Below are positions 1,224 to 30,272 of a stretch of 30,272 nucleotides of DNA, piece after piece. The translations under genes were made by a program, and so were the position numbers. The DNA comes from Escherichia phage S164, in the sequence record ON239131; one strand, 5' to 3'. The first letter of the stretch is position 1, and every line of letters starts with the position of its first letter. The notes under the pieces are model-generated. The model had not been told where the DNA came from. It saw only the letters and a program-made list of their open reading frames with translations, and did not search any database.

Positions 1224-2995
1224 CAGTAAAACTCCAGAATGGTGGATGTCAGCGGAGTGCTGATACCGGCGGTGAGTGGCTCATTTAACAGGGCGTGCAT
1301 GGTCGCCCAGGCGAGGTCGGCGTGGCTGGCTTCCTCGCTGCGGCTGGCCTCATAGGTGGCGCTGCGTCCGCTGCTGGTCATGGTCTTGCGGATAGCCATA
1401 AACGAGCTGGTGATGTCGGTGGCGCTGACGTCATATTCCAGACAGCCACGGCGGATAACGTCTTTTGCCTTGAGCACCATTGCGGTTTTCATTTCCGGCG
1501 TGTAGCGGATATCGCGCGCGGCGGGATAGAACGAGCGCACGAGCTGGAACACACCGACACCGAGGCCGGTGGCATCAATCCCGATGTATTCAACGTTATA
1601 TTTTTCGGTGAGTTTGCGGATGGATTCTGCCTGGGTGGCAAAGTCCATGCCTTTCCACTGGTGACGCTCAAGGATCCTGAATTTGCCACCGGCCACCACC
1701 GGCGGTGCCAGCACCACGCATCCGGCGCTGTCGCCACGGTGTGACGGGTCGTAACCAATCCATACCGGGCGGGAGCCGAACGGATTTGCGGCAAACGGTG
1801 CATAGTCTTCCCATTCTTCCAGCGTATCGACCATGCAGCGTTGCAGCTCCTCGAACGGGAACACCGACGCTTTGTCGTCAACAAATTCACACATGAACAG
1901 GTTTTTAAAATCGTCGGCGCTGTTTTCACGTTTGAGCTGCTCAATGTCGAACAGCGTGCAGCCGCCTTTCAGCGCGTCCTCAATGGTGACAATCTGCCGC
2001 CACTGGCCGTCCGCACAGAGAAGCCCACCGGCAAGGGCGTTATGACTGACGTCGATTTCCACGCGTTCGGCGGCGCTGGCGCGTCCCCGGTTGAACAGTT
2101 CACCCGACCAGAACGGGTAGGCGTCGTGCGCCAGCGTGGACGGGGTGGAGAAATAGGTCGAGCGCAGGTGACTCTGTGAGGCCATACCTGATGCCACCTT
2201 ACGCAGTACCTGAAAATTCGGGATCCAGAAAATCTCGTCGACGTACAGGTCGCCGTTATGGCTCTGTGCGGTGTTGGAGTTGGTGCCGAGAAAAATCAGT
2301 TTTGCACCGTTATTGCCCAGGACAATCGGGTCACCGGTCAGGTCAACGTCAACCAGCCGGGCAAAGGCAATGATGTATTCGCGGAACACATACGCCTGCG
2401 TTTTACTGGCCGACAGAAAAATCTGGTTATGGCCGGTTTTCAGGGCGCGCAGCAGCGCCTCGCGGGAAAAATAAAACGTCGCGCCAATCTGGCGGGATTT
2501 CAGGATATCGCGGATGCGGTGCTCAAGCCCGGCGCGATACCAGTGCAACTGATAGTCGAAAGACTGCTCAAAGAAAATCTGCTCCAGCTTTTCGATGGCC
2601 TCGTCACTGAAAAAATTCTTTTTCGGTTTGCGACGCCCGCCTTTGTTGCGGTTAGCGACGTTCGGATTAAGGTCTGCCTCGTTGCCGGTCTGACTGTAAC
2701 GGTTGACCCGTGCCAGTCGTTCAATCTGGCGTCCGAGCAGGTCAATTTCCTTGAAGTCACCGCCGGTTTTCTGCGGTTTGATGATGAGCTGGGTCAGCCT
2801 CGCTTCCAGACTCATTTCGACACGGCTGATGGGGGCAACGCTGTCCCAGCCGTCGCGCTGTTTCCAGCTCTGCACCGTCGGGCGTTTCATCTGCAACATG
2901 GCGGCAATCTGCGGCACGGAAAATCCCTGCCAGTACAGCAGCGCCGCCTGACGACGCGGGTCGTGTAAAAGAGTGGTGTCTGTGGTGATGGTCAT
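1223..2995 (-). CDS. P: Terminase large subunit (ATPase/nuclease)
   Basis: The track ORF is 600 aa. I chose the internal ATG at 2995 (MTITTDTTLL...), which has a GAGG Shine-Dalgarno sequence upstream and gives 590 aa, as in P2 gpP. Confidence 0.92.
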   Translation of the reverse strand: MTITTDTTLLHDPRRQAALLYWQGFSVPQIAAMLQMKRPTVQSWKQRDGWDSVAPISRVEMSLEARLTQLIIKPQKTGGDFKEIDLLGRQIERLARVNRYSQTGNEADLNPNVANRNKGGRRKPKKNFFSDEAIEKLEQIFFEQSFDYQLHWYRAGLEHRIRDILKSRQIGATFYFSREALLRALKTGHNQIFLSASKTQAYVFREYIIAFARLVDVDLTGDPIVLGNNGAKLIFLGTNSNTAQSHNGDLYVDEIFWIPNFQVLRKVASGMASQSHLRSTYFSTPSTLAHDAYPFWSGELFNRGRASAAERVEIDVSHNALAGGLLCADGQWRQIVTIEDALKGGCTLFDIEQLKRENSADDFKNLFMCEFVDDKASVFPFEELQRCMVDTLEEWEDYAPFAANPFGSRPVWIGYDPSHRGDSAGCVVLAPPVVAGGKFRILERHQWKGMDFATQAESIRKLTEKYNVEYIGIDATGLGVGVFQLVRSFYPAARDIRYTPEMKTAMVLKAKDVIRRGCLEYDVSATDITSSFMAIRKTMTSSGRSATYEASRSEEASHADLAWATMHALLNEPLTAGISTPLTSTILEFY

Positions 2996-3168
2996 GAATA
3001 CCTCGCCGTGATGAATACACGGCAAGGCTACTGAGTCGCGCCCCGCGATTCGCTAAGGTGCTGTTGTGTCAGTGATAAGCCATCCGGGACTGATGGCGGA
3101 GGATGCGCATCGTCGGGAAACTGATGCCGACATGTGACTCCTCTAATCACTATTCAGGACTCCTGACA
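2996..3168. promoter_or_regulatory. Divergent late-promoter region (PP leftward, PO rightward)
   Basis: 173-nt gap between the divergent P and O genes, which is where the Ogr-dependent PP and PO promoters lie in P2. At 3064..3085 it contains TTGTGTCAGTGATAAGCCATCC, which aligns 16/22 with a motif upstream of FI (14958..14979). Exact -10 elements and transcription starts were not resolved. Confidence 0.55.
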
Positions 3169-25219: not shown

Positions 25220-25491
25220 GTATTCGTATTGAAATTGGCGAACGTTATGTCGTTACCAGTGACAGCTTTCAGTTTATTCTCCACGAGAAAAAGAGAGCTG
25301 AAAGCGGTAAAAACGCCGGTCAGGAATGGCTGGCGGTGGTTGGTTATTACCCGAAATTAAGCCAGCTTGTTTCCGGCCTGATGCATCACGATATTCTGAC
25401 CGGAAGCGCAAAGTCTTTTGCTGATTTAAACGCGCAGGTTGAGCAACTCAGCAAGCGTTGTTCAGAGGCTTTTGGCTCATATGGCCGTTAA
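25216..25491 (+). CDS. Hypothetical early protein (P2 orf83 position)
   Basis: 91 aa, translationally coupled at both ends. Confidence 0.7.
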   Translation: MSIRIEIGERYVVTSDSFQFILHEKKRAESGKNAGQEWLAVVGYYPKLSQLVSGLMHHDILTGSAKSFADLNAQVEQLSKRCSEAFGSYGR

Positions 25492-27766
25492 AGCCTCCGG
25501 GCGTTTTGTCCCTCCGTCAGCATTTGCCGCAGGCACCGGTGAGACGTTTACCGGTGCTTATGCATGGAACGCGCCACGCGAGGCCGTCGGGCGCGAAAGA
25601 CCCCTTACACGTGACGAGATGCGTCAGGTGCAAGGTGTTTTATCCACGATTAATCGCCTGCCTTACTTTTTGCGCTCGCTGTTTACTTCACGCTATGACT
25701 ACATCCGGCGCAATAAAAGCCCGGTGCACGGGTTTTATTTCCTCACATCCACTTTTCAGCGCCGTTTATGGCCGCGTATTGAGCGCGTGAATCAGCGCCA
25801 TGAAATGAACACCGACGCGTCGTTGCTGTTTCTGGCAGAGCGTGACCATTATGCGCGTCTGCCGGGGATGAATGACAAGGAGCTGAAAAAGTTTGCCGCC
25901 CGTATCTCATCGCAGCTTTTCATGATGTATGAGGAACTCTGCGATGCATGGGTTGATGCACATGGCGAGAAAGAATCGCTGTTTACAGATGAGGCGCAGG
26001 CGCATCTGTATGGTCATGTTGCTGGCGCTGCACGTGCTTTCAATATTTCCCCTCTCTACTGGAAAAAATACCGTAAAGGACAGATGACCACGAGGCAGGC
26101 ATATTCTGCCATTGCCCGTCTGTTTAACGATGAGTGGTGGACTCATCAGCTTAAAGGCCAGCGTATGCGCTGGCATGAGGCGTTACTGATTGCTGTCGGG
26201 GAGGTCAATAAAGACCGTTCTCCTTATGCCAGTAAACATGCCATTCGTGATGTGCGTGCACGCCGCCAGGCAAATCTGGAATTTCTTAAATCGTGTGACC
26301 TCGAAAACAGGGAAACCGGCGAGCGCATCGATCTTATCAGTAAGGTGATGGGCAGTATTTCTAATCCTGAAATTCGCCGGATGGAGCTGATGAACACCAT
26401 CGCCGGTATTGAGCGTTACGCCGCCGCAGAGGGTGATGTGGGGATGTTTATCACTCTGACCGCGCCGTCAAAGTATCACCCGACACGTCAGGTCGGAAAA
26501 GGCGAAAGTAAAACCGTCCAGCTAAATCACGGCTGGAATGATGAGGCATTTAATCCAAAGGATGCGCAGCGTTATCTCTGCCGCATCTGGAGCCTGATGC
26601 GCACGGCATTCAAGGATAATGATTTACAGGTCTACGGTTTGCGAGTCGTCGAGCCACACCACGACGGAACGCCGCACTGGCATATGATGCTTTTTTGTAA
26701 TCCACGCCAGCGTAACCAGATTATCGAAATCATGCGTCGCTATGCGCTCAAAGAGGATGGTGACGAAAGAGGAGCCGCGCGAAACCGTTTTCAGGCAAAA
26801 CACCTTAACCGGGGCGGTGCTGCGGGATATATCGCGAAATACATCTCAAAAAACATCGATGGCTATGCACTGGATGGTCAGCTCGATAACGATACCGGCA
26901 GGCCGCTGAAAGACACTGCCGCGGCTGTTACCGCATGGGCGTCAACGTGGCGCATTCCGCAATTTAAAACGGTTGGCCTGCCGACAATGGGGGCTTACCG
27001 TGAACTACGCAAATTGCCTCGCGGCGTCAGCATTGCTGATGAGTTTGACGAACGCGTCGAGGCTGCACGCGCTGCCGCAGACAGTGGTGATTTTGCGTTG
27101 TATATCAGCGCGCAGGGTGGGGCAAATGTTCCGCGCGATTGTCAGACTGTCAGGGTTGCCCGTAGTCCGTCGGATGAAGTTAACGAGTACGAGGAAGAAG
27201 TCGAGAGAGTGGTCGGCATTTACGCGCCGCATCTCGGCGCGCGTCATATTCATATCACCAGAACGACGGACTGGCGCATTGTTCCGAAAGTGCCGGTCGT
27301 TGAGCCTTTGACTTTAAAAAGCGGCATCGCCGCGCCTCGGAGTCCTGTCAATAACTGTGGAAAGCTCACCGGTGGTGATACTTCGTTACCGGCTCCCACA
27401 CCTTCTGAGCACGCCGCAGCAGTGCTAAATCTGGTTGATGACGGTGTTATCGAATGGAATGACCCGGAGGTTGTGAGGACGCTCAGGGGTGCATTAAAAC
27501 ACGGCCTGAAAACACCAAATCGTCAGCAAAGAAACGGAAGCCCGTTAAAACCACATGAAATAGCACCGTCGGCCAGACTGACCCGGTCGGAACGATTGCA
27601 AATTACCCGTATCCGCGTTGACCTCGCTCAGAACGGTATCAGGCCGCAACGATGGGAGCTTGAGGCGCTGGCGCGTGGCGCGACAGTAAATTATGACGGG
27701 AAAAAATTCACGTATCCGGTCGCTGATGAGTGGTCGGGATTCTCAACAGTAATGGAGTGGACATGA
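25481..27766 (+). CDS. A: Rolling-circle replication initiator (HUH endonuclease) A
   Basis: Start at MAVKASGRFVPP gives 761 aa, as in P2 gpA. It has the HUH motif (PHWHMMLF) and paired tyrosines (GYIAKYISK). Confidence 0.93.
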   Translation: MAVKASGRFVPPSAFAAGTGETFTGAYAWNAPREAVGRERPLTRDEMRQVQGVLSTINRLPYFLRSLFTSRYDYIRRNKSPVHGFYFLTSTFQRRLWPRIERVNQRHEMNTDASLLFLAERDHYARLPGMNDKELKKFAARISSQLFMMYEELCDAWVDAHGEKESLFTDEAQAHLYGHVAGAARAFNISPLYWKKYRKGQMTTRQAYSAIARLFNDEWWTHQLKGQRMRWHEALLIAVGEVNKDRSPYASKHAIRDVRARRQANLEFLKSCDLENRETGERIDLISKVMGSISNPEIRRMELMNTIAGIERYAAAEGDVGMFITLTAPSKYHPTRQVGKGESKTVQLNHGWNDEAFNPKDAQRYLCRIWSLMRTAFKDNDLQVYGLRVVEPHHDGTPHWHMMLFCNPRQRNQIIEIMRRYALKEDGDERGAARNRFQAKHLNRGGAAGYIAKYISKNIDGYALDGQLDNDTGRPLKDTAAAVTAWASTWRIPQFKTVGLPTMGAYRELRKLPRGVSIADEFDERVEAARAAADSGDFALYISAQGGANVPRDCQTVRVARSPSDEVNEYEEEVERVVGIYAPHLGARHIHITRTTDWRIVPKVPVVEPLTLKSGIAAPRSPVNNCGKLTGGDTSLPAPTPSEHAAAVLNLVDDGVIEWNDPEVVRTLRGALKHGLKTPNRQQRNGSPLKPHEIAPSARLTRSERLQITRIRVDLAQNGIRPQRWELEALARGATVNYDGKKFTYPVADEWSGFSTVMEWT
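27332..27351 (+). other. ori: Candidate origin / A-protein nick region inside the A gene
   Basis: GCGCCTCGGAGTCCTGTCAA lies about 1.85 kb into A. I recall that the P2 ori lies within A at about this relative position and contains this sequence. This rests on memory only. Confidence 0.35.
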
Positions 27767-28218
27767 TGGCAAAAATTCACGAGGTAAAGCTGCACGCAAA
27801 ATATTTCGACCTTGTGCTGGAAGGAAAGAAACGCGCAGAGTTTCGGAAAAATGACCGTAATTATGAGCGCGGGGACACGTTGATTTTGCATGAATGGGGG
27901 CAGGGTGTGTATACGGGGCGAAAGGTTGAAGCCCGGATAACAGATGTTACTGACCTGTCAGACTGGCTGGAAGATTATGTCTTGCTAAGTATTGAGCTGC
28001 TTAATACAGGCGCATATGAGATTGTGAACAGGAAAGAACTTAGTGAGCGTGGTCTGTTATTCAGAATTAATCATGAAATTATGCATAAGCTCGGCCTTGC
28101 TGTTATGTATGAACCAGAGACGGGAATGTCTGGCGGGGCAATGGTTGCCACGGATGGAGCATGGAACTATTCAGATGAACAGATGGAGCGTGCACAGCAA
28201 AACGGGTGGCTTGGATAA
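27763..28218 (+). CDS. ASCH/DUF3850-like (PUA-fold) protein with an extra ~70-aa C-terminal region
   Basis: 151 aa starting at MMAKIHEVKLHAKYFDLVLEGKKRAEFRKNDRNYERGDTLILHEW, which is the typical DUF3850/ASCH N-terminal pattern. The start overlaps the A stop (ATGATG). Confidence 0.7.
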   Translation: MMAKIHEVKLHAKYFDLVLEGKKRAEFRKNDRNYERGDTLILHEWGQGVYTGRKVEARITDVTDLSDWLEDYVLLSIELLNTGAYEIVNRKELSERGLLFRINHEIMHKLGLAVMYEPETGMSGGAMVATDGAWNYSDEQMERAQQNGWLG

Positions 28219-28424
28219 TGCACAGAATACCAGGCGAGATACCGCACCATAAAACTAAAAATATCAAGCTGATGGCTATTGTTCAGCGTTTACAGCGGAT
28301 TATGGTCAACGAAAATCTGACGCCCGATGAGCTAGTCGGGTGTGCCGAAATAGTCCGGGATAATTACGGGCGGTTTAACTATATCGGTCAGTCCAGAGTT
28401 GCGCCACCACCACGCAGACGATAG
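28218..28424 (+). CDS. Hypothetical 68-aa protein, translationally coupled (TAATG) to the ASCH gene
   Basis: MHRIPGEIPHHKTKNIKLMAIVQRLQRIMVNENLTPDELVGCAEIVRDNYGRFNYIGQSRVAPPPRRR. It ends at a TAG that is followed in frame by 24 sense codons. Confidence 0.55.
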   Translation: MHRIPGEIPHHKTKNIKLMAIVQRLQRIMVNENLTPDELVGCAEIVRDNYGRFNYIGQSRVAPPPRRR

Positions 28425-28426
28425 AT

Positions 28427-28495
28427 AACGCCGCCAGTCGTGAAACTTGTTTTCAGGGCTGGCGGCGTTGAACAACGAGTGAAGCGAGGCGTTAG
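28427..28495 (+). repeat. 69-nt element, copy A (11-bp perfect hairpin with a 21-nt loop, plus a 26-nt tail)
   Basis: AACGCCGCCAG (28427..28437) pairs with CTGGCGGCGTT (28459..28469). An ungapped alignment to 29399..29467 gives 51/69 identities. Confidence 0.8.
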
Positions 28496-28653
28496 TTGAC
28501 ATTCATATTTTTACTGCGTTGGTGCTGTTTTTTGACGGTTGAAAGGAGTTATCTCGGAGAGCTAAAGCTAACAACTTACAAATATTCAAAAGTAAGCTTC
28601 CTGTTGCTAACATAAGGTCGATTTTTTATGTGGATGATGCAAAAAGGATAGCT

Positions 28654-29385
28654 ATGGATACTATAATCGCTTTTCTATCACTCGCTTTTTTTGTTGCTTT
28701 TTTCATCGGGTTAATCAAGCCATCACTGGTGCGAATGCCAAGCCGCAAACGTGCAAGTGCGGTTTATCTCGGAGGAGGTTTTGTATTGAGCATAATTGGT
28801 TCAATACTCTATCCAACAGAAAAAAGCCAGCCAGTTGCTAAAACTGAAACATCAACCGTTGTAGAACACCAAGTCCAAAAAACATTCGAATATGGTGAAA
28901 AAACACTCAAGGAATATCGGAGCGAGCCAAAGAAAACTCGACACGATATTGTGAATAGTTACATTGACTTTAAGAAAGTTCCAGTCACCGCATCAGATGC
29001 ATTTTATGCCTGCATGAGTGAGTATACATTTACCAAAGATGATGAGTTGAAACTCGGTGATGTTCTTGGGTGGTGCTTTAATGATTATGAAAATGACCCG
29101 AGTTCACTAAATAATAAAATCAATCTTGATACATTTCAGAGTAATTTTAGTGGTTGGGATGGTTCTTATCGTCCATTGGAAAAACTAATTAAAGATAATA
29201 TGAACGATGATTCATCTTATAAACATGTATCAACGGTATATCATTTAGTTTTGAATAAAGACCCGCACGCCATTGTGAAAACGACGTTTCGCGGCACTAA
29301 TGCTTATGGTGGCATGGTCAAACAGACTGTAGCAGCGCGAGTTGACGTGCGAACGGGTGAGATCGATTCAATACTCGACAATTAA
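28654..29385 (+). CDS. Two-TM membrane protein with a predicted ~180-aa periplasmic C-terminal domain; cargo gene 1, function unknown
   Basis: ATG at 28654 with an AAAGGA Shine-Dalgarno sequence, preferred over the GTG at 28630; 243 aa. TM1 is IIAFLSLAFFVAFFIGLI, followed by a basic loop (KPSLVRMPSRKRAS), TM2 (VYLGGGFVLSIIGSILY) and then a soluble domain. The gene is AT-rich relative to the backbone. Confidence 0.75.
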   Translation: MDTIIAFLSLAFFVAFFIGLIKPSLVRMPSRKRASAVYLGGGFVLSIIGSILYPTEKSQPVAKTETSTVVEHQVQKTFEYGEKTLKEYRSEPKKTRHDIVNSYIDFKKVPVTASDAFYACMSEYTFTKDDELKLGDVLGWCFNDYENDPSSLNNKINLDTFQSNFSGWDGSYRPLEKLIKDNMNDDSSYKHVSTVYHLVLNKDPHAIVKTTFRGTNAYGGMVKQTVAARVDVRTGEIDSILDN

Positions 29386-29398
29386 ATAATATAGTGAC

Positions 29399-29467
29399 AG
29401 CTCCGTCAGTGATGAAACTTGCTTTTAGTCTTGGCGGGGTTGAGCAATGAGTCTTGCAAGGTGTTAG
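29399..29467 (+). repeat. 69-nt element, copy B (same hairpin geometry, 7 Watson-Crick plus 4 G.U pairs)
   Basis: AGCTCCGTCAG (29399..29409) pairs with TTGGCGGGGTT (29431..29441), with a 21-nt loop. It is 51/69 identical to copy A. Confidence 0.8.
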
Positions 29468-29507
29468 CATGCGTAGAATGGAAGCTGCTTGGACGTGGGG
29501 TATTCAT

Positions 29508-30125
29508 ATGAATTTAAAAATTTTCGGCATAATTGTCCTTTCTGCTTTGATGTTCGTTTTAGGTTTTTTTCTCGGTGGTTTTAATTGGGAATGGGCTGAT
29601 AAGAATTATGCAGGTGAGGTGGCGTTGTGGAGTATGTTAGGAGGGTGGTTATCCGCAATTGCAACTCTGTTTGCCGTGTTGGTTTCATTATATATGGCGT
29701 ATCAAGCTACTCAGAATGAGATTGAAAAAATCAGGGTTACTCATGGAGTAAGTATGAGTGTCACTCATGACAATGAGTTAAGTTGTAATCTCATTATTCA
29801 GAACTTGAGAAATATGAAAGTGAATATTACTGGTGTTTTTTTGTCTCTAGGTAAATCATCAGGTAAGTACTCTTTGGATAAAGTAATTGACAATTGTAAT
29901 ATAACGCTTTCATATAAAGGTGAAACAGAAAAGGTACAATTTGTAATCCATTCTGGGTATATTTGGTGGTCAATGTATAAATTATTCGATATGGATAAGA
30001 ACATAGGTTTTGAAAAGGGTAAGATCTTTATAACAACCAACCTCAATACATATGAATTTGATTTGCCAAAAGAATATTTAAGAGCTTTTGAGAAAGCTTA
30101 TTCGGAGTATCAGACAAAAAAATAA
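29508..30125 (+). CDS. Two-TM membrane protein with a predicted ~130-aa cytoplasmic C-terminal domain; cargo gene 2, function unknown
   Basis: ATG at 29508 (MNLKIFGIIVLSALMFVLGFFLGG...) is preferred over the TTG at 29454; 205 aa. The second TM helix is ALWSMLGGWLSAIATLFAVLVSLYMAY. The C-terminal domain is rich in N, K and I. The gene is very AT-rich. Confidence 0.75.
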   Translation: MNLKIFGIIVLSALMFVLGFFLGGFNWEWADKNYAGEVALWSMLGGWLSAIATLFAVLVSLYMAYQATQNEIEKIRVTHGVSMSVTHDNELSCNLIIQNLRNMKVNITGVFLSLGKSSGKYSLDKVIDNCNITLSYKGETEKVQFVIHSGYIWWSMYKLFDMDKNIGFEKGKIFITTNLNTYEFDLPKEYLRAFEKAYSEYQTKK

Positions 30126-30132
30126 TGAGCTG

Positions 30133-30154
30133 CATGCAAAAGGTGCATGTTTTT
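30133..30154 (+). terminator. Rho-independent terminator after cargo gene 2
   Basis: CATGCA-aaagg-TGCATG at 30133..30149, followed by TTTTT at 30150..30154. It starts 8 nt after the stop codon. Confidence 0.6.
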
Positions 30155-30254
30155 GCATGTGCTAAGTTCACTGGTTTTGTGTATATCGCTTCAGATCTAG
30201 CGTGGTTCCGGGGAGGGCATGCAACTGCATTAAAACCGCTCCATGAAGCGGGCG

Positions 30255-30272
30255 GGCGAGGCGGGGAAAGCA
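30255..30272. other. cos: cos cohesive-end sequence (right copy, first 18 nt)
   Basis: GGCGAGGCGGGGAAAGCA is identical to 1..18. The window ends one base short of the full 19-mer. Confidence 0.85.

Follow-up and report, generated by a model that had tools for sequence, protein, structure and literature searches.

A strand-specific hairpin-and-tail element found after genes and at module junctions in P2/186-type phages

The DNA analysed here (the window) is a 30,272-nt stretch of Escherichia phage S164 (record ON239131), and the features described below lie near its right end (Table 1). Two diverged copies of a 69-nt element, A and B, alternate there with phage genes on the same strand. An orf91 homologue and an orf92-family ORF precede copy A, gene 1 separates the two copies, and gene 2 follows copy B. 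The window closes on a right cohesive end, a probable match to the P2 cos sequence (GGCGAGGCGGGGAAAGCA); cosR is annotated as the last 19 nt of the P2 record. The block just left of the cohesive end (30131-30253) shares homology with the right end of phage 186. Gene 1 is homologous to orf97 of 186, which is semi-conserved and belongs to the SOS operon, and a note in the 186 record states that orf97 blocks 186 infection when expressed from a plasmid.

Table 1. Coordinates of the element copies and neighbouring features in the S164 window
Feature	Position	Strand	Details
orf91 homologue, DUF3850/ASCH-domain (RNA-binding-like) protein	27730..28218	+	Part of the orf91-orf92-element module of P2-type phages
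orf92-family ORF, PHROG 11386, C-terminal PPPRRR	28206..28424	+	TAG stop (28422-28424) 2 nt upstream of copy A
Element copy A, 69 nt	28427..28495	+	Covariance model 90.6 bits, E=6e-25
Copy A hairpin	arms 28427-28445 and 28451-28469; loop 28446-28450	+	Loop CTTGT
Copy A tail	28470-28495	+	GAACAACGAGTGAAGCGAGGCGTTAG
Gene 1, phage 186 orf97 homologue, PHROG 3403	28630..29385	+	Likely ATG 28654; stop 13 nt upstream of copy B
Element copy B, 69 nt, diverged	29399..29467	+	Covariance model 62.3 bits, E=1e-16
Copy B hairpin	arms 29399-29417 and 29423-29441	+	Loop CTTGC
Copy B tail	29442-29467	+	Includes AAGG 7 nt upstream of the gene 2 ATG
Gene 2, PHROG 16957	29469..30125	+	ATG 1 nt past the end of copy B
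Intrinsic-terminator-like hairpin and T-run after gene 2	30132..30160	+	In the conserved cos-proximal block
Right cohesive end (cos), P2-like genome; window end	30254..30272	.	

The two copies lie within a gap-free direct repeat of 72 nt (28424-28495 and 29396-29467, 74% identity) with starts 972 nt apart, and the pair of 69-nt copies reported in an earlier, sequence-only reading of this DNA is confirmed inside it. A covariance model (R1), trained on 113 distinct family members, recognised both copies and found no third one in the 30-kb window. Copy A contains an inverted repeat and folds at -33.5 kcal/mol (z=-4.4 vs. shuffled sequence). For copy B alone, the fold is no better than that of shuffled sequence (z=-0.96), so the argument for structure rests on the family and not on copy B by itself. 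Checking the letters upheld the pairing first described for the lower stem, with 11 Watson-Crick pairs in copy A and 7 Watson-Crick plus 4 G.U pairs in copy B, and the double change from G-C in A to U.G in B is real. The original picture of an 11-bp stem with a 21-nt loop was right about the 11 pairs but not about the loop, which is itself paired, giving ~19 pair positions and a 5-nt loop.

The sequence-only reading had proposed a search for further copies, and many were found in P2-like phages and Enterobacterales genomes. We collected ~200 copies from IMG/VR, GenBank phages, and Enterobacterales genomes (195 in 167 loci retrieved); part of this set was gathered by sequence patterns, and conservation of the columns covered by those patterns is inflated. 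The element is widespread in P2/186-type phages of Enterobacterales and had not been catalogued before. Matches include Wphi, 186, and PSP3, as well as phages of Erwinia, Klebsiella, Salmonella, and Yersinia. Every copy inspected lay in a P2-like phage or prophage, with one or two copies per phage, and plasmid-borne copies sit within an integrated P2-like prophage. When species-representative genomes were scanned with the exact tail pattern, 18 Enterobacterales records matched with one copy each, along with one Clostridiales-labelled and one Chryseobacterium-labelled record that fall outside the inspected contexts. Among E. coli genomes, 515-538 of 5426 match, each in one to three places. A dispersed chromosomal repeat is ruled out by this copy number and context, and the element is not a REP, BIME, or ERIC repeat, an identity that had been put forward as the finding that would count against a structured RNA. 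The sole Rfam 15 match in 27000-30272 at E<=10 was a spurious group II intron in gene 1 (18.6 bits vs. a threshold of 40). The 186 element with its terminator region gave only chance hits in Rfam, and ARAGORN reported no tRNA or tmRNA.

Among 76 close relatives, 35 (~46%) carry the element and 41 do not, and P2 itself lacks it. Any role it plays is therefore accessory, and this distribution excludes an essential replication or packaging signal. Decayed copies also occur. Presence is tied to orf92, the most frequent gene upstream of the element, which was found at 24 of 35 loci with it vs. 2 of 41 without. The element is 84% identical between S164 and 186, and gpA of a 186-like phage is ~37% identical. 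Copies sharing a genome showed no sign of homogenisation, their identity being 0.79 vs. 0.82 for random pairs.

Across the family, the element consists of a ~19-bp hairpin capped by a loop of 5 nt (CUNGY) and, after it, a tail of 26 nt that is mostly unpaired and conserved in sequence (GAACAACGAG-NNNN-GCGAGGCGTTAG). It starts with AAC and finishes with GTTAG. At the hairpin apex, one side is rich in A and the other in U, and pair 4 is a G-G mismatch in 82 of the 113 sequences. A covariation test, also proposed at the outset, revealed structure-preserving double changes in the main hairpin across these 113 distinct sequences. Paired cells amounted to 91%, vs. 28-47% when the partners were slid, and 10 of the 19 hairpin pairs showed changes on both sides. 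There were 73 double-change cells vs. 16.5 in shuffles, a value reached in 0 of 500 shuffles. RNAalifold recovered the same hairpin independently. Members ascertained by the tail only have unrelated stem sequences, yet five of six fold a hairpin at the same position; the tail is likewise conserved among copies ascertained by the hairpin alone. Within the tail, the second 4-bp stem (AACG/CGTT) that had been described as maintained showed no covariation across the family, and neither did CTCGC/GCGAG, which is paired in only 65% of cells. An alternative closing helix (AACGCC/GGCGTT), possible in 91% of cells, was rejected, as it showed no double changes and did no better than shuffles.

The structure is specific to one strand. 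G.U cells outnumbered A.C cells by 256 to 23 (11:1), and in 109 of 113 sequences the plus strand folded more stably, with the same preference under DNA parameters. At 80 loci picked by gpA similarity only, 42 of 42 hits lay on the gpA strand, and orientation goes with the phage backbone and not with single cargo genes. The sequence-only reading had concluded from the G.U pairs that the element works as RNA and not as a DNA site. Its strand-specific, structured, and conserved nature holds up, but the step to RNA was overstated because folded single-stranded DNA (ssDNA) would show an identical asymmetry between strands through its G.T wobbles. Both the G.U/A.C asymmetry and the fixed orientation are equally expected for an ssDNA hairpin. 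Where the element is 90-91% identical, third codon positions of orf92 are only 58-74% identical, and codon positions 1 and 2 are similar to the element. It is thus under purifying selection, changing at about the rate of codon positions 1 and 2 of the neighbouring gene.

Nearly all copies directly follow a gene. In 164 of 177 cases (93%), an ORF on the same strand, at least 50 codons long, ends no more than 60 nt, and usually 1-17 nt, ahead of the element. These ORFs belong chiefly to the orf92, orf97, and Tum/DinI families; their stops are TAG, TAA, or TGA, and the gaps span 1-54 nt in all phases. In the 186 record, the element occupies 30344-30412, between the orf97 stop and t95b, the annotated terminator of the p95 transcript. 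This places it within the mapped p95 transcript and indicates that it is transcribed in 186. For a 186-like prophage of Salmonella, tum has been reported as the top-expressed prophage transcript. Downstream of the element, ~69 of 116 contexts run into a same-strand ORF, and 26 of 116 contain a separate intrinsic terminator within 120 nt, mostly beginning ~25 nt past the element. These same-strand ORFs and separate terminators indicate that the element is read through rather than terminating transcription. No intrinsic terminator was called at either S164 copy on either strand, the stem being followed by GAACAACG without a U-tract. A portable ribosome-binding site, with the tail GAGG as Shine-Dalgarno sequence, was also considered; this is not general because only ~9 of 116 contexts, gene 2 included, start a gene 0-3 nt from the junction.

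The 3′ edge of the element is also where genome modules meet. Homology of the window to Wphi and other P2-type phages ceases at 28497, and homology to 186-type phages, which covers orf97 and the element, ceases at 29468. Family-wide, homology breaks sharply after GTTAG, with a jump in entropy at +1 and a pyrimidine at that position in 30 of 38 downstream contexts. The flanks fall into 18 clusters upstream and 38 downstream, which reassort around the element; the hairpin columns of the alignment follow the upstream flank, and the tail columns follow the downstream flank. The sequence-only reading had suggested comparing cargo boundaries with the element, and module boundaries do coincide with its 3′ edge, where the reassorted accessory modules, often anti-phage ones, meet. 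From this we infer recombination within or at the element. That the 3′ boundary is so sharp in 38 unrelated contexts suggests that joining is precise, in a way that homologous recombination would not by itself account for. The left edge of the orf97 module lies elsewhere, at 28604-28622, which is 109-127 nt past copy A. In some phages, gene-plus-element arrays occur in direct orientation, including tum-element-orf92-element and, in the S164 window, orf92-element-orf97-element. The initial description of copies bracketing a cargo gene is overstated as a general pattern; most phages are single-copy, and the supposed cargo, gene 1, is the orf97 homologue.

We give about even chances to the reading that the element is a transcribed 3′-UTR or intercistronic RNA element that doubles as a recombination joint. 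The element belongs to the rightward-transcribed replication/SOS arm, and its RNA would form the 3′ UTR of orf92, tum, or orf97 or a spacer between cistrons there. In this place it could act as cis RNA punctuation, with the stable hairpin defining or protecting the upstream message at its 3′ end, perhaps as a barrier to exonucleases or as a processing site for RNase III or RNase E, comparable to T7 intercistronic sites and REP stabilisers, and the tail would be read by a putative factor. The placement is that of an intercistronic RNase III site or 3′ stabiliser, namely an imperfect ~20-bp hairpin directly after a cistron. As DNA, the element is near-constant across lineages whose replication proteins are ~37% identical and thus forms an island of homology that borders the variable region on the left. 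This island and the conserved cos-proximal block could between them provide homology arms for swaps of accessory or defence modules. Still, a simple stabiliser or processing hairpin leaves the strong conservation of the unpaired tail unexplained.

Other explanations account for parts of this evidence. One holds that the element is a recombination site acting as folded plus-strand ssDNA, in the manner of an integron attC site or an HUH hairpin-plus-nick site. Exposed, for example, during rolling-circle replication, it would let DNA be cut and rejoined precisely behind GTTAG, so that defence modules could be inserted or swapped in the P2 hotspot, and the tail would be the binding and cleavage sequence of a putative recombinase. 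The sharp junction ahead of 38 unrelated contexts, the unit-like arrays, the strand-specific folding with its conserved pair-4 mismatch, and the AAC...GTT ends all agree with this idea, as does the annotation in the P2 record that rolling-circle replication is initiated by an HUH nickase. Nilsson et al. (2004, Mol Biol Evol 21:1) reportedly argue for site-specific recombination in this region. Even so, we regard such a site as unlikely. It calls for a hypothetical recombinase partner, and the end of the tail is unlike the gpA nick site CTCGG/AGT. We found no similarity between the element and the P2/186 nick region (GCGCCTCGG/AGTCCTGTCAA), their sole relation being a 7-nt reverse complementarity that is at chance level and lost in 186. 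Furthermore, the attC R′′/R′ boxes are lacking, folding is on the sense and not the bottom strand, and the tail sequence is much more conserved than in a typical attC. Some module junctions, such as the left edge of the orf97 module, fall off the element, and its boundaries could owe their sharpness to coding constraint alone, given the genes that closely flank it on either side. We also judge it improbable that the element acts on RNA polymerase, whether as a non-canonical attenuator, pause site, or terminator or as a put- or boxB-boxA-like antitermination signal, setting how much early/SOS transcription enters the downstream modules or crosses cos. In some 186-like phages it does follow tum, where 186 has the partial terminator t95a, and the order of a hairpin followed by a conserved single-stranded block resembles rrn boxB-boxA. 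Furthermore, UUGAACAA agrees with the 3′ part of boxA (UUUAACAA) at 7 of 8 positions, and the end of the tail, GGCGTTAG, is one base off ops (GGCGGTAG). However, that mismatch falls on a critical base of ops, and on inspection against the consensus the boxA core GCUC is absent, so the element does not qualify as a nut or rrn boxB-boxA signal. A U-tract after the stem is missing, nothing terminator-like was called at the element on either strand, a separate intrinsic terminator follows soon after it in 26 contexts, and the element stands at operon ends rather than starts. The ops-like GGCGTTAG and a Chi-like GCTGGCGG, each with one mismatch, are probably coincidences.

Freely reassorting flanks, dispensability, and decayed copies would all be expected if the element were functionless, a passive linker left from an ancestral right-end module and copied on by inter-phage recombination. 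We find this quite unlikely. Compensatory changes keep the hairpin, the stem is wholly replaced in distant members, G.U is in 11:1 excess over A.C, and the element evolves as slowly as non-synonymous positions beside much faster synonymous sites. Somewhat similarly placed in our estimation, and very unlikely, is a trans-acting small RNA or sponge derived from the 3′ UTR, made up of the element and the following terminator, with the tail as seed. The 186-type ends have a hairpin, a conserved single-stranded tail, a ~25-nt spacer, and a terminator with a U-run (t95b), which is the usual architecture of a ~125-nt Hfq-dependent sRNA, and the tail contains AAC-AAC repeats. By contrast, a terminator lies within 120 nt in only 26 of 116 contexts (186-type terminal ones) and after neither S164 copy, tail-complementary partners in the phage are not above chance, and Rfam offers no match. 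Finally, we give almost no credence to a micro-peptide encoded by the element or a C-terminal extension produced by stop-codon read-through. The observations behind it were accurate for the window, in that in-frame start codons are present at 28440 (GTG) and 29412 (ATG) and copy A shares the frame of the orf92 TAG. The family does not bear the idea out: 49 of 113 members lack a canonical start at the two in-frame positions (64 of 113 have one), 21 of 113 have frame-breaking changes in length, and some contain in-frame stops. The 113 members would yield 91 distinct peptides, and a Shine-Dalgarno sequence is absent. Amber read-through likewise fails as a general feature, given that the upstream stop varies among TAG, TAA, and TGA and its distance and phase are variable.

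Among reservoirs of anti-phage defence genes, the stretch from gene A to cos in P2-like phages counts as one of the best studied. The element stands at the left edge of this variable DNA and is 80-95% identical between genera whose replication genes share ~37% protein identity. The most recent survey of the hotspot leaves the mechanism of module exchange open (PMC13586616). The element offers a testable candidate for it, as either a homology arm or a specific site for module swapping, and also a testable candidate post-transcriptional signal on early/SOS-operon messages, including the tum antirepressor mRNA. Covariance model R1 can serve as a sequence-and-structure marker of hotspot boundaries across thousands of prophages. 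Should the element prove to be only a 3′ stabiliser, the known phage cis-RNA elements would gain a modest new entry.

The locus corresponds to the "TO region" of P2, the defence hotspot between gene A and cos, which is variable, carries anti-phage genes, and is rapidly swapped. Two papers on this hotspot (PMC9122126 and PMC13586616) mention no hairpin, stem-loop, DNA repeat, or conserved intergenic element at the locus. In the other literature on P2-like phages that was searched, the element is not described and its sequence strings were not found. Among known systems, it resembles the RNase III hairpins of T7 early mRNA (R0.3-R1.3) and lambda sib, conserved and imperfect structures spanning about two helical turns. 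All of these lie right after genes in polycistronic phage transcripts, are repeated within a genome, and are specific to the sense strand. With the T7 and sib hairpins, the upstream message is left with a protective hairpin at its 3′ end, and by analogy the element may have the same effect. Unlike them, it has only one or two copies per genome, carries a 26-nt conserved unpaired tail, is dispensable, and sits at a module junction. REP/BIME 3′ stabilisers are also GC-rich repeated hairpins right after stop codons and can block 3′-5′ exonucleases, but REP sequences number hundreds of dispersed copies per chromosome, whereas the element has one to three per genome and lay inside a P2-like prophage in all inspected contexts.

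As a DNA site, the element is most readily compared with integron attC (59-be) sites. Like these, it follows a gene in the same orientation and keeps its structure while the stem sequence varies; the two also share single-strand folding with a conserved imperfection, AAC...GTT ends, tandem gene-plus-site units, and exact junctions. The attC boxes R′′ (RYYYAAC) and R′ (GTTRRRY) do not appear, as the 4 nt before AAC do not read RYYY and a pyrimidine is usual after GTTAG, and the two flanks of the element are not complementary in the way that R′′ and R′ are. The element differs further in folding its sense (top) strand, in having a G-G mismatch rather than an extrahelical base as its imperfection, in the strong sequence conservation of its tail, and in forming no more than two units per phage. 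P2-like phages carry a phage-type tyrosine integrase that acts at attP and are not known to use IntI. A last parallel is with the "boundary" or linker sequences between lambdoid modules, short stretches of conserved intergenic DNA that join unrelated modules and are candidates for homologous exchange. Unlike those linkers, the element shows structure-preserving covariation and strand specificity, which indicates selection for a function of the element itself, beyond mere shared homology.

The two copies in the window form a 72-nt direct repeat, gap-free and 74% identical with starts 972 nt apart. The repeat proposed by a sequence-only reading of this DNA is real, and every base-level statement of that reading was correct when checked against the sequence. 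The hairpin it described also held, but its 21-nt loop did not: the supposed loop pairs with itself, giving ~19 pair positions and a 5-nt loop, and a 26-nt tail ending in GTTAG follows (together, element E). Copy A folded much more stably than shuffled sequence (z = -4.4), and copy B by itself did not (z = -0.96). R1, a covariance model of E, found exactly these two copies in the window, which comes from the right-hand side of a P2-like phage genome. Homology with the right end of phage 186 reaches 30253, and we take the window end to be the right cohesive end (cos). None of the four ORFs tested (orf91, orf92, gene 1 and gene 2) matched a PADLOC defence model. A weak Rfam match to a group II intron catalytic domain within gene 1 (28738-28812; 18.6 bits vs. 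a gathering score of 40, E-value 2) was regarded as noise.

Layout of genes and elements from gpA to the window end
Feature	Position
gpA, rolling-circle replication nickase	25439-27766
Orf91 homologue, DUF3850/ASCH domain	27730-28218
orf92-family ORF	28206-28424
Copy A of E	28427-28495
Gene 1, homologue of phage 186 orf97	28630-29385
Copy B of E	29399-29467
Gene 2	29469 (ATG)-30125
Terminator-like hairpin, then cos	30132-30150

By BLAST, we detected further copies in ~80 GenBank phage records (Wphi, 186, PSP3, and P2-like phages of Salmonella, Klebsiella, Erwinia, and Yersinia). Two pattern scans of IMG/VR, one with the hairpin top and right arm only and one with the tail only, yielded 165 loci. 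With the 186 and Wphi loci added (167 loci), a profile search counted 195 copies, one in 139 loci and two in 28, and paired copies were always in direct orientation, spaced ~405, 431, or 972 nt apart. Among species-representative genomes, the tail pattern matched 20 records with one copy each; 18 were Enterobacterales, and the other two bear the labels Clostridiales and Chryseobacterium. E occurred in 515-538 of 5426 complete E. coli genomes at 1-3 places per genome, and copies on IncC plasmids sit within an integrated P2-like prophage. This rules out a dispersed repeat of the REP/BIME/ERIC type, an identity that the sequence-only reading had raised against itself; no Rfam family matched E. 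One IncC conjugative plasmid (locus L266, NZ_CP025141.1 27244-37312) carries a complete-looking integrated P2-like prophage with a convergent reverse-transcriptase gene right after E in its hotspot, the variable, defence-gene-rich region between gene A and cos. About 12 similar plasmid records of ~120-216 kb (Klebsiella, E. coli, Enterobacter, and Citrobacter) gave the same 87% match. Many “complete” E. coli RefSeq chromosome or plasmid records start inside a P2-like prophage, with gpA at ~720-2220 and E at ~2620-3015 (e.g., NZ_CP135722.1 2944-3015, NZ_AP021890.1 720-2220, and NZ_CP104682.1 2623-2691). Apparently these assemblies had been rotated so that the phage “replication endonuclease” gene, not dnaA or repA, comes first.

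In an alignment of 113 distinct E sequences (A2), the 19-pair hairpin was paired in 91% of cells vs. 28-47% with slid partners, and RNAalifold recovered the same helix. Both sides had changed in 10 of the 19 pairs, with 73 double-change cells observed vs. 16.5 in shuffles (0 of 500 shuffles reached 73), so the main hairpin shows the structure-preserving covariation that had been proposed for it. Covariation was absent from both proposed tail stems and from an alternative closing helix, and the 4-bp tail stem said to be kept through wobble pairs is not supported. The fourth pair was a G-G mismatch in 82 of 113 sequences. The strongest single evidence for structural selection comes from members found by the tail pattern only, whose stem sequences are completely different, some AT-rich, although five of the six tested fold into a hairpin with its end at the same place.

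At three stem positions, G.U occurred more often than any other state. Because G.U pairs far outnumbered A.C (256 vs. 23 cells) and the + strand was the stabler in 109 of 113 sequences, folding is selected on the sense strand only; the pattern also makes a palindromic protein-binding site in double-stranded DNA less likely. Strand-specific folding was thus read correctly from the two copies, but not the step from G.U to RNA: DNA parameters gave the same asymmetry (108 of 113), so it is no guide to whether the folded strand is RNA or single-stranded DNA.

The tail is strongly conserved even in copies found by the hairpin alone, except for 3-4 hypervariable bases, and entropy jumps from ~0.2-0.4 to 1.6-1.9 bits exactly one base past GTTAG. 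Across phage pairs, E was 90-91% identical where orf92 third codon positions were 58-74% identical, about equal to codon positions 1+2, in data that are partly pattern-ascertained. With the same qualification, E is under purifying selection. E is 84% identical between this phage and 186, and gpA of a 186-like phage is ~37% identical at the protein level; the DNA shared by the window and 186 comprises only the orf97+E block, E itself, the cos-proximal block, and a few gene A patches. Decayed or shortened copies were seen at five survey loci (L125:686-721, L133:6135-6170, L232:8609-8688, L189:8087-8150, and L222:6320-6383), some with the hairpin deleted and the tail retained. A short-tail variant (hairpin + GTGAAGTAAGGCGTTAG) lies 3′ of a GNAT acetyltransferase gene and occurs in 11 E. 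coli genomes. The right arm at 28457-28464 (GCTGGCGG) is one mismatch off Chi (GCTGGTGG), oriented so that RecBCD would read it on entering at the right cos end, and the tail end at 28488-28495 (GGCGTTAG) is one mismatch off the RfaH ops core (GGCGGTAG); both matches are probably coincidental.

E is found closely behind a limited set of rightward genes: 164 of 177 copies were ≤60 nt past the stop of a same-strand ORF (≥50 codons), mostly 1-17 nt. These ORFs belong to ~10 families, dominated by orf92 (119 copies), orf97 (46), and Tum/DinI-like genes (40), and end in TAG, TAA, or TGA; the micro-ORF and amber read-through once suggested were rejected. In 80 loci picked by gpA similarity only, all 42 copies were on the gpA strand, and E was present in 35 of the 76 with ≥4 kb of sequence after gpA. 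Its presence tracks orf92, orf97, and full-length orf91, and E is missing from P2 itself, in which a short orf91 is followed by tin and old. The element therefore belongs to the rightward arm of the backbone as an accessory component and does not travel with arbitrary cargo genes. It is also dispensable. Members of the orf92 family have a C-terminal polyproline motif (PPPRRR or PPPRRP), a few codons ahead of a stop 2 nt from the hairpin base (28400-28426); a ribosome stalled there would cover the 5′ arm and could couple translation to folding after orf92 only.

Among 116 distinct downstream contexts, ~69 ran on into a same-strand ORF, ~21 had a convergent nearest ORF, in many ending within a few nt of E, and 26 had a canonical intrinsic terminator, mostly starting ~25 nt after E, as 186 t95b does. 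By the annotation of the 186 record, E is transcribed there, since it falls after orf97 and before the terminator annotated for the p95 (SOS) transcript. The most divergent hairpins (L082, L085, L155, and L097) all follow Tum/DinI-like antirepressor genes, which suggests that E was originally located at the 3′ end of tum, within the SOS operon. Among the transcripts of a 186-like Salmonella prophage, that of tum is the most abundant, and 186 itself has a partial terminator, t95a, at the position after tum. Directly 3′ of copy A is a perfect -35 hexamer, TTGACA (28496-28501), with no good -10 after it; within 29456-29471, the tail of copy B has a Shine-Dalgarno-like AAGG (GAGG in the family consensus) 7 nt 5′ of the gene 2 ATG.

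E also marks a sharp boundary between reassorting modules, in line with the cassette exchange that the sequence-only reading had listed as one possibility. Homology to Wphi and other P2-type phages stops at 28497, two bases past copy A, and homology to 186-type phages at 29468, one base past copy B. Family-wide, 18 upstream and 38 downstream flank clusters combine freely around E, all 38 of the latter starting immediately after GTTAG, and the 186-type terminator/cos block, for instance, is found behind seven of the upstream clusters. Linkage with the upstream flank is stronger for hairpin columns and linkage with the downstream flank stronger for tail columns, as expected with exchanges within or at E. 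Not all junctions are at E; the left edge of the orf97 module is at 28604-28622. Given its conservation, E with the cos-proximal block would provide a homology arm for module exchange.

A single-stranded-DNA site-specific recombination site, attC-like or HUH-like, is a less probable reading, kept because an RNA punctuation role leaves the sequence constraint on the unpaired tail unexplained and the 3′ junction is extremely sharp; however, we found no consensus match and no enzyme. The title of Nilsson et al. 2004 reportedly invokes site-specific recombination in the same region, and that paper may already note a conserved sequence there. A mimic of the gpA nick site was rejected: the tail's CGAGGCG (28486-28492) is the reverse complement of CGCCTCG at the ori nick site (27329-27335), a 7-nt match at chance level and lost in 186. 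A terminator, an antisense partner, an essential replication or packaging signal, and a portable RBS were likewise tried and rejected. The exchange mechanism at the hotspot has been stated to be unresolved (NAR 2026). Leaving Nilsson et al. aside, E appears to be uncatalogued so far: two hotspot papers mention no hairpin, stem-loop, DNA repeat, or conserved intergenic element at its locus (Rousset 2022; NAR 2026). On the RNA reading, which we favour, E would act in cis, either by setting or shielding a 3′ end or as a site of processing, and it most resembles the T7 intercistronic RNase III sites, lambda sib, and REP stabilisers.
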